Assembly (NCBI GenBank): GCA_951406725.2
Contig: OX597825.1
Span: 83,638,001 to 83,702,000 of the forward strand
Length of the DNA stretch: 64,000 nucleotides
Reading direction: 5' to 3'
Source: Octopus vulgaris
Taxonomy: Eukaryota
The notes beneath the pieces are model-generated. The model made no database searches. It was given only the letters and a program-made list of their open reading frames with translations, and was not told the origin of the DNA. Position 1 is the stretch's first letter. Each line of letters begins with the position of its first letter. This document shows positions 7,600 to 56,990 of this stretch, piece after piece. A program made the translations under genes and the position numbers.

Positions 7600-8055
7600 A
7601 GGGGGGGGGGGGGTCATCAAAGGTTTCCCCTGACCCATTTTCGGTTATTGTAGGAAGCGGAACTTGTACAGGTGTAATCATACATGTCTCTACATGTCAC
7701 ATTTTAAATAGCAGCTTTCCACTAGTATTTGTTTGTCTTTTACGGCTGCTGAAGTGGACTAAAGTGTTTATAATGGAGACAGTTGAATGCAGATCAGTGA
7801 TCAGGTTCTTATACTTGAAAGGTCGTACACCAAAAGAGACTTTCGATGAGATGAAAGAAGTTTATGGTGACGATGCACCATCATACGACGTAGTCAAGCA
7901 ATGGCATCGCCAGTTCAGATGTGGTGGATATCGGTGGAAACTGGACCACCACTTTCCACCATTGATGATGACACTATCCATAAAGTGGAATCCGCCATTG
8001 TGGAGGATCGTCACATAACTTTTCGGCAACAAAGTAACTGCAGAGTCCGTGAAAA
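7600..8055 (+). mobile_element. Mariner transposon 5' remnant (N-terminal HTH of transposase, frameshifted)
   Basis: ORF 7764-8018 RSVIRFLYLKGRTPKETFDEMKEVYGDDAPSYDVVKQWHRQF, then IHKVESAIVEDRHITFRQ in another frame. Confidence 0.85.
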
Positions 8056-23252: not shown

Positions 23253-24813
23253 TACTGTAGTAGTCAAAATTAGGAAACGAAAATGAAATTTAATGATATT
23301 TACATTTCTTTAAATTCCTATTTCTTCATTTTTCTGAATGGGATTTTTTTACTGCATATACATTAAAGTATATTCATTATTAACAATACATTTTGTAGAA
23401 AGTAATTTATAACGAAATAATTTATGATAGAAAAAATAGTTATTTGAAAAATACAAGATCGAGAAAATTAGAGAACGTATGATATAAAATTCAAAAAATT
23501 AAAATCTGACAGCACTCCAACCGATGCAAATTAAGTTCACCTAATGTGCAAAGATTTATATAGGACATTAGAAAACCGATGTAAAGTTGATGAAAGCCTG
23601 AGGAAGCGGGTAGTCACATTGATAAAAGAAGGAATGGCATTTTCTTCTATCGTCAGAGACAGTAACAGATCAAAGAGTGTTGTTTGAAGAATACACAAGC
23701 TTGATAACAAAACAAGCTGGTTTGTGTCATTAGAAAAACGAAGACCACGGAAAACAAGTGTTTGCCAAGACTGTGTGATTCAGAGGCTGTCGTTAAGAGA
23801 CCATTAAGATACTGCTGCAGGAAATTCTCGCAAAGCAAATCGTGATTATGGAATGAATGTGTCTCGGAGGACTGTGGCTTGTTGTTTGAAGAAAATTGGA
23901 CGTCATGCCCATTTAATCTGCCACTAAACTTCTTAACAGTTTAAGGCACCGAAAAGCGAGGTTAATCTTTGCAAGTGAGCAGATGCGTTGGACGGACGAC
24001 AACTGATCACGTGTGTTCTTCAGTGATGAAAGCAAATTCAATTTGGTCGGTTCTGATCGAAGCCAATACATGAGATGTCGTAAAACTGAAAGATTGCTCC
24101 CCGAATGCATGAAGATGTCAGTGAAGTTTGGAGGTGGGGTTTTTATCGTATTGGGAATGATTTCTGAAGCAGGTGTTGGGTCTTTGATCCGAAGCCACGG
24201 TAATGTGAATGCAGCCTTATACAAAATCATCGTTCTGCAATATATCGTGTCAGCTATCAGGTCATCTCTAACTCGTCAGTCAATCTTTATACAGGATAAT
24301 ACACCGTATCCGTGCTAAAATAGTTAAAGTGGTGTTTGAAGCTAAAAGCCTTAATATAATGCGTTGGTCAGCTCAGAGCACTGACCTTAATTCCAATTAA
24401 AATTTATGGAAGATACTTAGCGATAAGATCCTAGAACACAGACCTGCGAATGTTATGATTTTGTGGGGGGAAAACCCCAGGGAGAATGGTATAAAATTAC
24501 GTCAGAAGAATGTGAGAAATTGGTCAAAGTCAAGAAAAATAAAGGATTGAACTCATCTAATCAATATATTGAAGTGGATTGTAAATATTTCCGGAAAAGT
24601 GTTGATTTCTTGAATTTTACGTCATACGTTCACCAATTTTGTCCATCGTGTTTTTTTTTTCAAATAAACGTTGTTATTTTTTTCTATTACAAATTATTTA
24701 GTTATTAATCTCTTCCTACAAAATTTATTGTAAATAATGAATGTACGTTACTGAAGTAGAATTGTAAATATCTATATTTCTTATTTTTGGTCTCTAATTT
24801 TGGTCACTAATAT
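23253..24813 (+). mobile_element. Decayed full-length Tc1-like (DD34E-type) DNA transposon
   Basis: FFSDESKFNL, VKFGGG, FIQDN and a decayed W.AQSTDLN..NLW motif; imperfect TIRs TACTGTAGTAGTCAAAATTAG (23253) / CTAATTTTGGTCACTAATATA (~24800); multiple stops and frameshifts. Confidence 0.85.
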
Positions 24814-32783: not shown

Positions 32784-32784
32784 G

Positions 32785-32980
32785 TTAGTTAATCCAAACA
32801 AGAAAGCACAAAAAAACACAACAACGCGAGGACGTAGAACAAATATAGTATTACTGGACGCTCAGGAAAGAAGGAGGGTTTAACGTTTCGAGCGGAGGTC
32901 TTCGTCAGAATCATAGGAAAAGGAAAGATCCAAAGAAGGGAAGACGGAGGAAAAAAATCGCCAACGGTACACACGCGGTA
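32785..32980 (-). mobile_element. PLE-like short repeat with a minimal HHR (32878-32912)
   Basis: RC GATT-CTGACGA-AGACCTCCGCTC-GAAA-CGTT-AAAC; homolog of 12590-12770. Confidence 0.65.
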
Positions 32981-33271
32981 CATATATATACATGCCGTCT
33001 GAATAGCCAGTCGTTGCTAGGCAATTTTTACAATTGAATGACATATAAATTTTTATTTATTCCACGCCAGAGCATGCCTTTCCCGGAAAATGGACCTCTT
33101 AATCGGGACATATTTGCGCAATGTTTCACCAATGTTTTAAGCCCTTAAAATCTTTGAGAGAGATTTTAGTACAAGCATTTTTGCTTGCTGCAAAATCAGC
33201 GACTGTAGATCGCTTGAAATTATACATATTGCCAGTAGAAGCGAGCTACAGCCATCTCTAGTAGACGAGGT

Positions 33272-33325
33272 GTCCAGTACTGAAGAGAGGCAGAAATAGC
33301 CCGAAACCAGGCTGGTCTGCTGGAC
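33272..33325 (+). ncRNA. Canonical type I hammerhead ribozyme motif
   Basis: GTCCAGTA-CTGAAGA-G(A)GGC-agaaata-GCCC-GAAA-CCA-ggc-TGG-TC-TGCTGGAC: 8-bp stem I, 4-bp stem II, 4-bp stem III, GUC triplet. Confidence 0.85.
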
Positions 33326-34385
33326 CCGTTGCTCCAGGGTGATAGGGTTTCTCTCCCCCTACTCGCAGCATCTTGGATGCAGATGTGCATCGTTAACCAG
33401 CCAGAGGAGATGTCCTCTTGGGGTTAAAAAGTCGCAGTAAAATCCGTTCGAACGGGAAGCCATGTTGAAGTGGCTACGAATATTACTTATCAGTACAACT
33501 ACTGCGTTGATCTCTTACAGAGATTTTAGAACCGCTATTTTTAGTTATATATACATACATGCAGCTCTTTCCCAGGTTTCTCATTCCCTGTCACTCTCTA
33601 TTCATCTATCTATCAATCACATTCTATCTACTTATTTATTCATGAGCCTACGTATCACTCTCTAGATTACTTTATCTATATTTCTCTCACTCTACCCCAT
33701 CCTCTCTCTCTTTCTCCTTCATTCTCTCTCTCTCTCATACCCTCTCTGTTCTCCAGACTACTCTCTCTTGATATCGCTCTGTATATATTTACCCCCAAAT
33801 ATATCCCTTGAATCAAATTGGCTGCGATTTTTCGCTATAAACATTCTTGTCTTTTTGATGTATTTAATATTTTTTCTGCTTTATATTTTCTTTTCATTTT
33901 CTTCGTTTTTCGTTTCATTAATTTTTATAGACTGAGAAGAACAGATGATATATTGGATTGATAAATATATATGCATGTGGGTGCATGCGAACTCGCGGGC
34001 GCATGCGCATAAATGACTGCATTTGTTTTGTGTATATTTTTGCGTATGGGAGTATGTACAATTCTACATATATATGTGTGTGTGTGTATACACACACAGA
34101 GATATATGAAAATACATACATACATACACACATGCATACATACATACATATATACATATATACATACATACATACATTCATATATTGAATGACCGCTGCA
34201 TTAAGTGTATGAATTTGTGGGGGAAATATGTTGAATAAAATCATAATTAACTGATTCTGTATTTTCTTTTACTCAAATCCAGGAACTTTTCTGCATTTCC
34301 ACGTATGTGTGTGTGCGAATGCGTGTGCGTGTGCGAGCGCACGTGTGAGTGTAGAGAGAGAGAAAGAGAGAGAGAGAAAGAGAGC

Positions 34386-38435: not shown

Positions 38436-41270
38436 CACTCACACTCATATATACACATACATATGAATGTAGATATGTACATAGATACATACAGGCACGC
38501 ATACATACATATACGCCTACAATCATTCATACATACACACATACATACATACATGCATACACACCCATACATACATATACACATATATACATGCATACAT
38601 ACATGTACACACACACATACATACATACATACGTACATACATACATACATACATACATACATACATACATACATACATACATACATACATACATACATAC
38701 ATACATACATACGTACGTACGTACAACTATGGTATTTATATTATACCCTGACAGCTGTGAGGCTACTTAGGTAATTCTTCAGGTTTTGAATGAAAAAAGA
38801 AATTGTTGTGACGTTTCGTAAGCCAATCCTTCGTCAGAAGAAGGAAAGAGAGAAAGGAGGAGAGGGAGAAGAACGAAAGAAAATGAGTGAAGATTTAGAA
38901 ACAAGGTGGAACCACTGTATATAGTATATAGTATCCTCAGTCGATAAATAAGGTATCATTTAAAGACTAGTGTACTTTGTCCTGGTTCTCCTTCGTTGTC
39001 ACCTCGTGTCACCTCCTGTTAATTCTTTTCTCTCTCTCTCTCTTTCTCTCTCGATCTGTGGCTAATTTTTCCTGCCTTTCTGTCAACCTTTCTCTGTCTC
39101 CCTCTCTCATCTGCTCTCTTTCAGTCAGAATCTGCCTCGTCGTTCCAGAATAAGTGTCGAAATGGATCATATGGAACGGAGTATCGATTGTTTCTCTACG
39201 AGAAAAGCTTACTCGTTCATCGATCAACAGTTTGCAATTTTTAGAGAAATTTACAAAATCGGAGCGCTGATTAAATGAACAGATCGATGTAGAATAGAGA
39301 ACTGAAAGGAAATAAAGATATTTGTCGGCAAATATTACGGGTCAGGTTAATAATTCATCTCTTTATTGCATGAAATATTATTCTTAATTAGAACGCTATC
39401 TCTTTGACCGAGTCTTATTTATGGCATATAAAAAAAAAATGCTAAATTCATCCTAAAATATCTTACAGCTCACCTGTGCCATCAATATTCCCGTATAATT
39501 AAGGGAAAAACCTGATAAAATATCACAGAGAATCACGTTTTATTACCGCGACGAAATTTTGATTTTGTTAAATTCTGGATGACTCTTAGTAAGAGGGATA
39601 TTTTTTTTGGGGGGGGGTGTTCTTTTTACTCTTGTTTGTTTCGTTTTTCTTTTACTTCTTTCTGCGAGAGTCTTTGTTATATTTAAAATTAAAATACACC
39701 TAAAATATTTAGAAATACAAAAATCAGCGTGATTCTTTAATTCGCGAATGAAAATGGTGATTTTCAAAAGTAGAATCTTAATGAGAGTTAATTTCATTTG
39801 ATTCACTTGCCTTAATTAGTAAGGAAGAGCTCAATCTAGCATAAAAACATCTTGCTGTCTTAATGAACCAACCGAAGGTTAAAGGCTGAGGGGTGGGGTA
39901 GTCATGCCCAACATAATAAGGCACTGACAGGACTTAATATATTCCACAATCCAACCTCTGTTTGTTTTTTGTTTGTTTTTTTGTCTGTGAGTAACGTAAT
40001 AGTTGACTTTGTTCTTGCCGTTTCCTATCGGTCCATCGTTCGTAAATCATCGCTTATGCAACCTTCAGGTCGTAAAGACCTCATTTTGAAAATGGTCAGG
40101 TGAAACTCTGACGGAGATTAGATGAAGAAAACTAAGTGAAAAGTGGGTAGAAATTGAGAAAATAAACAACGGGAATATGAAGAATTGTATGAGTGGGAGA
40201 GAGACAGAAAGAGGGAAGAGGGAGAGAGAGAGAAGAAGAAGAAGAAGAAGAAGAAGAAGAAGAAGAAGACGAAAAATAACAACAACAACAACAACAATAA
40301 CAACAACAACAAGACACACTGAGAGGCAGAGTAATTGTATGTTTATAATTATATTTGTAATCTCATAATCTCATATTATAGTTAATTTCATATTTTTGCT
40401 GTTGTTGTTGTAGAGTAGGTCCTGTTGTTATTATTATTGCCATTGATGTCTGTTACTGAAGTGGTGCTGCTACCGTTACTGCTGCTGCTGTAGTTTAAAT
40501 CTCAGTCGGGCGTGAACCAGCGAATCAGTCACCCAAAACAATCCAACCGTGACTATCCCGTCTTTTTCCTATGTGCAGTAAACACCGAGTTTATACAACA
40601 AAAGGTGCCATTTCTAAGAAGGTGCGATGTTATATGAGGGATACTTGGCTTTTATTTCTATCTGGTTGGACACTTATAATCAGAAGCATTCCGTACATGG
40701 CCACCTCGTCTTGTTAAATTTCAAATCACTCCCCAGTGTATTATTTGCCTACTAAAACATCAATCCATGACGTGACGGAGATTTGGCTGCTAATTCAAGG
40801 TGGTCGAGTAACTGCAAAGAGGATCTTTTGTTGCAGATTTCGTTGTTCTTGTTAATCCTGTGTTATATTCTTGTTGCTTTTTGTTTTGTTTCTTTTTGAT
40901 TTTTGTATTTCAGGCACTATATTGCCTAATGTATCTTGCTTTCGATTCCAGCCTTGCCCACCCCACCTGCCATGGATTTTATGATACAAACATCTCGTTT
41001 TAATGTAATCTAAAGTAAGATTTCCAAAGCAATTTCTTGTTATGCCCCCAAAACTAGTTTGGTGAGTTATTTATAAAATCCTTCATAATTTTCAAAATAA
41101 TTCGAAACAAACAAAATTAATTCCAATAAAAACGACTAAACAAATATTGGGGATTATTTCCCACATTCTTCAGAACACTTTTAATGCAAAACCGACCGAG
41201 GTTGCCTCCAATTTCTGTGAGAAAATCTTTTTTTAAAGAGATCTAACTTCAAAGATTCCATCAGAATGAT

Positions 41271-55657: not shown

Positions 55658-56990
55658 TTAAAAATGCGACCAGATGCACGAAATCTTATTCCGATTCCCA
55701 TACCAAAGCAATTCAGCAAAATAAAAAGGGAAAGTGTAGGGGGCAGGAATATCCCCCTGTTTGATACAGTTGTCCACCAAACATTCATGAGATAGCTCAT
55801 CATTAAGGACTACTAGAACTTTCATGTTTCTGTGTAGATCCTTAAAGATGCACACAAAATGTGTTGGGCAACCAAGTTTACACAAAATAATCCACAGTGC
55901 CTTCCTGCTTACCATGTCAAATACCTTAGTTAAATCTATGAAGATCTGGTATAGTGGCATTTGTTCCTCTAAGCATTTCTCTTGAACCTGCCTCGCAGAA
56001 AATATCAGGTCCATTTTTCCTCGCTCAGATTTGAAACCACACTGTTCTTCAGGAATCACATGTGGCCACACATTCTCAACGAGACGATCTAACATGATCC
56101 TTGAAAGTATCTTCCAGGTATATGCCAGAATTATATATTTGGCATATCCCTCTAGAATTACCACACACTGCTTTTGGGCCCTTACCATTGTATACAGAGA
56201 TTAGAATGGCATTTATCCATTCTTGTGGCGAAGAAGATTCATACCAAACTCAAGTTATCAGGTTATGCATTTCAGATGAAATATCATCCCCACTTACTTT
56301 CAGAATTTCACCTGGAATACCATCCATTCCAGTTTCACCTGATCTCAGTTTACATAATGCTAGATTTACTTCTTCAATGGAATGTGTATCCTTCATGTGT
56401 TGCACTATTTCTGTTTGGTATCCATGTTCACTAAACACGGAATGTGGAGAAGATCTGAAAATTGTTCTCTACATTTATTCATTATTCCAGGAGGATCTTT
56501 AATAACCTCATTTTCCTCTTTTGACTTCAGGGGAACATATGAGGAAGAGCGCGGTCCAAAAGCTTGCCGCAATAAACTATAGAAACTTTTAATGTCTTTT
56601 CTGTCATAGACTGCCTGTACTTTCTCAGACAAATTTGTCCACCGAATGTCTTTAAGCTTCCTGAGTTCTTTTTGCAAGTCTGCTTCCTGAGACTTGTACA
56701 ATTTTGTTTGTTCTTAACTTTGCATTTTGTTCTTAACGTTTGGGTGAAGAAGCTTTCCATGAGTGGATCTCTTTCATTTATCTCTGTGTTATTGTAATCA
56801 AACCAGTCTTGGTGCTGTCTTCTCTTAAAACCTAACACATCTGATCTCATTTTATATATTCCATCCCAGAAAAGTTGCCATAAACCATCAGAATATAATC
56901 TTTCTTCGGCCCCCTGACAAGGTTATAGATATTTTGAGTGATTGCATCAGATCGCACCCAGCTGAACACATCTGCGATGCTGCTAATGTT
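55658..56990 (-). mobile_element. RTE-clade LINE ORF fragment (linker + RT N-terminal domains), frameshifted pseudogene
   Basis: RQHQDWFD; GMDGIPGEILK; IPEEQCGFKSERGKMDLIFSARQVQEKCLEEQMPLYQIFIDLTKVFDMVSR...LCKLGCP; CIKQGDIPAP. Confidence 0.92.

Follow-up and report, generated by a model that had tools for sequence, protein, structure and literature searches.

The hammerhead locus

The window, by which we mean the whole stretch of 64,000 nucleotides of Octopus vulgaris DNA that was analysed, is located on contig C12 of the 2.8-Gb genome that was searched (G000), and it carries a motif with the layout of a type I hammerhead ribozyme inside a single copy of a dispersed repeat, which we call F1 (Table 1). 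An earlier note, made from the letters of this DNA alone, had described the motif between 33265 and 33329, and its description of the letters holds. The core CUGAAGA (33280-33286), GAAA (33303-33306) and GUC (ending at 33317) is present; stem I is formed by 33272-33279 and 33318-33325 with eight pairs, one of them G-U; stem II consists of G33287-C33302 plus GGC/GCC, with A33288 as a bulged A; stem III pairs ACCA with UGGU around a loop of three nucleotides, and ACG/CGU can extend stem I. By its letters, the motif has the CUGANGA, GAAA and NUH cores, the three helices and the open stem I of a type I hammerhead, and stem II is just three to four pairs long with an atypical base. As a whole, the observation made in the note is confirmed in part, and the interpretation that it offered is supported in part.

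Table 1. Features of the hammerhead locus, in window coordinates.
Feature	Position	Strand	Remarks
Solo F1 copy	33150..33546	+	one unit of 360 nt (33150-33509), followed by 37 nt from the start of the next
Empty LINE target site (unit 104-123)	33253..33272	+	duplicated over 13-20 bp in occupied copies elsewhere
Type I hammerhead motif	33272..33325	+	cores 33280-33286 and 33303-33306; predicted cleavage after C33317
Near-palindromic helix III	33306..33316	+	10/11 pairs as self-duplex; predicted between-copy pairing
Private T>A	33324..33324	+	closes the U-U mismatch of the family; stem I from 6 to 8 pairs
Favoured 3' end A, at 33546 (unit position 37)	33533..33560	+	abuts a short (TA)n/(TACA)n run

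Contigs from two runs, X3 and X7, span the copy's left and right junctions with two and zero differences, and for this reason we take the locus to be real and not an artefact of assembly. Nor is the motif a chance occurrence, because a genome-wide search with its 32-nt core at up to two mismatches returned 97 sites (5 exact, 26 with one mismatch and 66 with two), whereas a reversed control pattern of the same core returned no genomic site at that threshold.

A dispersed family of 359-nt units

The motif had been placed in an unclassified segment, and this stands inside the window, where the segment is unique, and fails across the genome, where it is a repeat. A search with 32990-33560 gave 76 matches from the 40 that were scored among 1825 candidates, the main ones 79-85% identical, and these cover positions ~160-570 of the query. 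The sequence at 32999-33149 was considered as a part of the element and rejected, being a fragment of another repeat of which nine other fetched copies have no hammerhead unit; it corresponds to the 5' fragment of a dispersed repeat (222 candidates, ~80-85% identity) whose copies begin right after (TA)n.

The F1 unit is 359 nt long and is arranged head-to-tail. The window copy, at 397 bp or 1.1 units, has an internal direct repeat at a spacing of 360 nt and is 90.6% identical to the F1 majority sequence (38 substitutions in 396 positions), which was derived from 63 fragments in 51 of 61 loci, ten duplicates having been dropped. As a rough estimate, the genome holds ~600-630 ribozyme-bearing F1 copies at ~14% divergence. 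Head-to-tail continuity extends up to 805 nt, 4 of 107 segments span two ribozyme positions, and no large F1 array was seen among the examined loci. Tandem units of the retrozyme kind are thus found at the level of the family, in these F1 segments and in a three-unit array of the sister family F2; the window copy, with 1.1 units and one ribozyme, is no multi-unit retrozyme and fits the class of solo monomers as set out in the accessible part of bioRxiv 10.64898/2026.07.22.740005. The unit is non-coding and its 359 bp lie within the 150-450 bp of such units with a type I hammerhead; no open reading frame of at least 100 aa covers it in the window, and its G+C content of 47% lies above the descriptive retrozyme limit of <45%. 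Of the three origins that the earlier note had considered, a retrozyme monomer is the one that these data support. A retroelement 5' end is not, there being no adjoining open reading frame, and the sole upstream sequence that other copies share comes from the 3' end of a LINE inserted there.

In the family, stem I meets a U-U mismatch after six pairs, so that the 8-bp version is private to the window copy. Position 33324 is T in family contigs of four runs, and frequent variants within the motif in these runs fall at N7 (33284) and the bulge (33288), and also at 33302, 33315 and 33324.

Sister families and predicted folds

F2 has a 353-nt unit that is 62% identical to F1 over the whole length, with an alignment score of 195 against a shuffled maximum of 41.5; a first look yielded 4114 candidates, and two of the three units in its array are 98.6% alike. 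F3 was found in six loci. F1, F2 and F3 all keep the core, and the changes in stems I, II and III are compensated, stem I for instance being CCAGUA/UGCUGG in F1 and UCUGUG/CACAGA in F2. In helix III, sequences that differ between the families form a palindrome or near-palindrome, which is 11 nt long in F1, 8 nt in F2 and 6 nt in F3. Since palindromic helix III has been tied to double-hammerhead cleavage in tandem copies (in the accessible text of PMC4209133), its presence in three families points to cleavage of this double kind, and on such models the family would be cleaved mainly as dimers. For frog retrozymes, just one of nine tested dimers cleaved according to the part of bioRxiv 10.64898/2026.07.22.740005 that is accessible. 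Divergent hammerhead units at four further loci (L145, L168, L173 and L225), 62-75% identical to F1-F3, suggest that there are additional subfamilies.

Thermodynamic prediction is less favourable to the motif than its letters are. The earlier note had called it well paired, and ViennaRNA favours another hairpin, in which the stem II region pairs with the stem III region: for 33265-33329 the hammerhead fold is predicted at -14.5 kcal/mol against a minimum of -21.6 kcal/mol, a gap of ~7 kcal/mol, stems II and III have pair probabilities of ~0.01, and the fold of 33255-33340 has z = -0.72. Nearest-neighbour models give no credit to the non-canonical hammerhead core, and for this reason the unfavourable fold weakens the description without refuting it. 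The Rfam search that the note had proposed found no family at gathering score anywhere in the 64-kb window; the best hammerhead match was HH9, at 12.2 bits and E 9.1 against a gathering score of 52, and Hammerhead_1 was absent among matches at E<=10. For the F1 family the hammerhead is likewise not the predicted minimum, whether as a single form (-9.6 against a minimum of -14.8) or as a double one (-33.4 against -42.6), and the same applies to F3; in F2 the double hammerhead is the predicted minimum of the cofold (-29.5).

These predictions bear on the suggestion that the motif could cleave as a monomer, which on modelling appears doubtful: the single fold is not favoured, and the near-palindromic helix III is predicted at -1.2 kcal/mol as a hairpin and at -16.6 kcal/mol as a self-duplex. 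Folded as a circle, the majority sequence of the family has a z score of -9.8 and the window copy one of -3.3, and the long rod by which stem I is prolonged in family members has decayed in part in the window copy.

Insertion pattern of the units

We compared the ends of 107 F1 segments in 67 loci, 14 of 81 loci having been dropped as duplicates. The 5' ends are scattered, and the 3' ends fall largely in two zones 58 nt apart, which together hold 76 of the 107: 45 end at unit positions 15-45, with a mode of 37 and 30 cases in the 30-39 bin, a further 31 end at 322-345, with a mode of 338, and the other 31 end elsewhere. Paired segments are oriented head-to-head in 32 cases and tail-to-tail in one, and in half of the head-to-head pairs (16/32) the two ends are of different kinds. 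The two 3' ends recur in F2, near positions 233 and 291. Target duplications, which as called measure 8-16 bp, were found in 12 of the 15 F2 loci, out of 22, that have a head-to-head pair, compared with 12 of 210 mismatched controls; for F1 the figures are 13/32 and 230/992 (23%), in a test blurred by (TA)n flanks. Truncation at the 5' end, partial tandems, an inverted 5' copy and a tail at one end, all of which characterise Penelope insertions, are present, and the F1 and F2 pattern matches the one set out for Penelope-like elements (PLEs) in the accessible part of PMC8557442.

The cleavage site leaves no mark on these ends. Just 2 of 107 segments have their 5' end there, against 3.3 expected, and 74 run through it, as is expected for a circular or an uncut template. 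At unit positions 124-130 the 5' ends form a small peak, which we disregard because it likely results from the choice of loci via the core pattern.

One alternative is that an autonomous Penelope-like element has this unit as its pseudo-LTR, and the window would then hold a 5'-truncated piece of that element. The insertions are indeed of PLE type (PMC8557442), and PLE pseudo-LTRs carry type I hammerheads (PMC4209133), as far as the accessible texts of these two sources extend. We nevertheless consider this alternative improbable, because what lies upstream of the unit is another unit, an inverted arm, an unrelated flank or a LINE 3' end, and a comparison of 5' flanks gave no recurrent junction except that with the LINE. 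GIY-YIG elements with 781-aa frames are present in the genome, in which there are at least 150 GIY-YIG hits, yet among the 30 of these hits that were fetched we found neither an autonomous Penelope partner nor linked homology; one has a unit as an antisense neighbour, and none (0/30) has a unit in sense. An autonomous structure in which an RT and GIY-YIG frame lies between pseudo-LTRs was likewise not found. Since no fetched GIY-YIG locus carries the unit in sense, a Penelope-type partner of non-autonomous units is something that we infer.

A LINE inserted upstream of the ribozyme

In F1, F2 and F3 alike, a LINE has inserted at one exact place 27 nt upstream of the core. The site is empty in the window copy, and no sequence of this LINE lies in the window. 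Seven F1 copies that start at unit positions 103-105 share upstream sequence encoding RVT_1 and zf-RVT, and at one locus (L076) the unit stops at position 116, gives way to 1.9 kb of LINE and resumes at position 104. When the LINE alone served as query and the best 40 of 559 candidates were taken, its 3' end directly abutted a hammerhead unit at 35 of the 40 places (F1 at 14, F2 at 15 and F3 at 6), two of which, L111 and L158, are near-duplicates; this lies above the one target in >20% of flanks that is given as a criterion in the accessible text of PMC4494074. The remaining five places comprise two at which the apparent 5' end of another LINE follows, opening with a target-like word, one at which the unit is on an inverted arm, and two (L170 and L181) at which the sequence that follows matches neither hammerhead units nor the LINE 5' end. 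The proportion describes the nearest subfamilies, as the query came from a hammerhead-adjacent LINE copy, and the number 35 overstates independent insertions, as many LINE-adjacent loci lack the upstream half of the target.

Ten loci, eight among the 40 and two found via the unit, have both halves of the target and a duplication of 13-20 bp, and their LINE 5' ends range from near full length down to ~0.7 kb. In a tree of 44 LINE 3' regions, the starred branches force at least five changes for F1 and at least three for F2, and one supported LINE clade (15 rows) includes copies that precede both F1 and F2. The ten two-half loci and the LINE tree together argue for repeated insertions at homologous sites and against the copying of one chimera. 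LINE and unit occur together in inverted arms at L167, L171 and L179, a sign of later copying at these loci. No LINE piece was found after three units that end near positions 99-132.

The seven longest hammerhead-flanked LINE copies are broken, with a longest open stretch of 347 aa. Young relatives, at 71-77% protein and ~81% DNA identity, have an ORF1 with a zinc knuckle and an ORF2 with APE, RT and zf-RVT domains, so that the full set of LINE domains (APE, RT, C-terminal zinc finger and ORF1) is found in these relatives, for which the closest solved structure is LINE-1 ORF2p. They form head-to-tail arrays at G000:C9:59.204-59.253 Mb (L122-L127), and also at L128-L131 and L132-L134; the C9 array has ~9-10 units of 5277 bp that are 94-97% alike, several with long ORF2 frames. 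A short leader, different in each young subfamily, resembles a duplicated target of that subfamily, and the sequences beside young LINEs are other ones, specific to the subfamily and free of hammerheads. That each ~5277 bp array unit contains a hammerhead was considered and rejected, as no F1 unit and no core occur at the junctions. Upstream flanks common between loci (L128, L136 and L137; L133, L139 and L140) point to other fixed target repeats.

Alternatively, the L1/Tx1-like LINE could be the enzyme donor that mobilises the repeat, the unit being the 3' end of the LINE itself and not its target. Many loci with LINE and unit are truncated inside the LINE, lack the upstream half and end at the fixed 3' ends, and LINEs have been named as possible partners (in the accessible part of PMC7229834). 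Against this, the ten loci that keep both target halves and the duplication differ in their LINE 5' ends; two families that are just 62% alike are joined to members of one LINE clade; young sister LINEs share this type of 3' terminus and have other, hammerhead-free sequences after it; and among 28 loci found via the unit, one is joined to a LINE 3' end and one has a weak LINE match 1.4 kb away. We therefore regard a LINE donor as very unlikely.

Decay of the ribozyme

In 29 loci chosen on whole-length score, non-CpG substitutions affect 8.1% of the ribozyme region and 8.5% of the rest (P = 0.62), and the core is intact in 19 of 36 sampled copies. The 11 core positions have fewer non-CpG changes (16/364, or 4.4%, vs 8.5%), in a comparison where composition and locus choice are uncontrolled. 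The ribozyme therefore decays like the rest of the unit, which does not favour the host-retained ribozyme that the earlier note had also proposed. That the window copy is kept by the host as a functional monomeric ribozyme seems to us highly improbable: it is the only exact genomic match to a 50-nt motif of the family and is free of substitutions across unit positions 114-174 (61 nt; P = 0.002 if a copy is drawn at random), but one such clean run is expected among ~600 copies and this copy was chosen for being intact, its supporting rod is decayed, intact cores and flank-like decay are general in the family, and no host gene frame lies near the site.

No clear orthologue of the window copy could be picked out in organism E, none of the runs listed as containing the sequence is registered as RNA, and the contigs of run X20, which is RNA only by guess, are short paralogue-like pieces with no bearing on expression. 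The motif taken singly is ordinary, one among hundreds of decayed copies, and the window copy with its single ribozyme is most likely inert.

A probable non-autonomous repeat that serves as a LINE target

The reading that we consider probable is that the locus is an old solo copy of a 359-bp hammerhead repeat, likely a retrozyme that is non-autonomous and Penelope-spread, and that L1/Tx1-like LINEs insert at a homologous site in this repeat and its relatives. The family, its unit length, its sisters, the insertion pattern, the neutral-looking decay and the LINE insertions are observed; from them we infer transcription, cleavage of dimers, circularisation and a Penelope-type partner. Tandem units would be transcribed as multimers, which the predicted double hammerheads would cut and which would then probably be circularised. 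Re-insertion would likely depend on a Penelope-type reverse transcriptase and endonuclease, with target-primed reverse transcription by the Penelope-type protein starting from unit positions 37 and 338. This model agrees with that for retrozyme insertion in PMC7229834 and bioRxiv 10.64898/2026.07.22.740005, in so far as it is laid out in their accessible parts. Two-ORF LINEs of an L1/Tx1-like lineage insert just 5' of stem I, at position 104, likely by means of a sequence-specific APE endonuclease; the target duplication restores the 5' side of the downstream ribozyme, leaving the ribozyme and most of the rod whole, and LINE fragments are also taken along in later insertions of the retrozyme type.

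A more far-reaching version, which we put forward tentatively and judge unlikely, sees parasitism on three levels: the LINE would target retrozymes since flanking hammerheads free its co-transcript, and the retrozyme, itself a Penelope passenger, would spread pieces of the LINE. The LINE RNA would be cut by hammerheads ~300 nt upstream and 65 nt downstream. It counts against release that the upstream ribozyme position is present in just one of the ten two-half loci (L076), where it is itself degenerate, and release is further weakened because sister LINE subfamilies manage with targets that have no ribozyme.

The RNA of R2 is released by its own HDV-like ribozyme. R2 in 28S rDNA is co-transcribed with its target (cited in the accessible text of PMC4494074). 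By analogy, the octopus LINE, a site-specific element, may be transcribed jointly with its tandem target and freed by a ribozyme; unlike in R2, that ribozyme would be a part of the target, not of the LINE, and could cleave on either side of the LINE.

Comparison with known elements

F1 resembles the non-LTR retrozymes of animals, such as the 350-390 bp repeats of mussels, as these are described in the accessible parts of PMC7229834 and bioRxiv 10.64898/2026.07.22.740005. In both, a single type I hammerhead lies in a non-coding unit of 150-450 bp, copies are joined head to tail, solo monomers are numerous, the predicted circle is strongly self-paired and PLEs are present in the genome, and the U-U mismatch at the base of stem II in F3 is as in HHR_Amex2 of the axolotl. 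Unlike the retrozymes of those texts, the family consists mostly of dispersed insertions of 1-2 units, in which head-to-head inversions occur, 3' ends are fixed at two places and targets are duplicated; its G+C content is 47%, it is known here from sequence, and the F1-F3 units are targeted by a LINE.

With the pseudo-LTRs of PLEs (PMC4209133 and PMC8557442, in their accessible parts) the units have in common a palindromic helix III suited to dimers, partial tandems, an inverted 5'-truncated copy, a tail at one end and, in F1, a bias to (TA)n. In contrast to these pseudo-LTRs, they have no RT-GIY-YIG frame, their ends are offset by 58 nt as against 30-40 nt, and their helix II is short where that of the pseudo-LTRs is long.

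A preference for other repeats as targets is already known in the Tx1 clade (PMC4494074, PMC4640811), where, as listed in the accessible text of PMC4494074, Tx1L is found in Tx1D, Tx1-Mar in Mariner-N4, Keno in U2, and Kibi and Koshi in microsatellites. Like target-specific Tx1 LINEs, the octopus LINE has two ORFs, of which ORF1 bears a zinc knuckle and ORF2, in young relatives, the APE, RT and zf-RVT domains; it also inserts at a fixed site in another repeat with duplication of the target, inserts into itself in tandem and has sister subfamilies with different targets. It differs from the Tx1 elements in these sources in that the target is a hammerhead unit of retrozyme type and the site lies beside the ribozyme; the LINE itself may belong to Tx1 or to L1.

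A site-specific LINE that targets a ribozyme-bearing repeat was not found in the literature searched, which lies outside Repbase, Dfam and subscription papers, and no description of the hammerhead family was found in the literature on octopus or cephalopods, though the family or the LINE may be already catalogued. Within that literature, it is the targeting of hammerhead repeats by a LINE that is new, and it is new at the level of the families; a LINE on a ribozyme-bearing repeat adds a new class of target for L1/Tx1-like elements. How animal retrozymes insert is still open in the accessible text of the cited papers, and the signature seen in F1 and F2 gives exact candidate priming sites. For an APE endonuclease, the unit also supplies a short and defined target, and the genome contains sister subfamilies that differ in specificity and have intact ORFs.

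Other features of the window

A different repeat at 32784-32985 has a minimal hammerhead-like core at 32908 on the minus strand, and similar cores occur at 38837 and 19409, also on the minus strand; this repeat matches a locus (L223) that lies ~0.8 kb downstream of a GIY-YIG hit, at 87%. By eye, a broken frame at 55658-56922 (minus) is like a LINE reverse transcriptase, and broken frames at 7602-8018 and 24007-24318 are like Mariner/Tc1 transposases. Near-identical opposite stretches at 626 (minus) and 736 (plus) are probably the inverted ends of a small element, and the window is rich in microsatellites.
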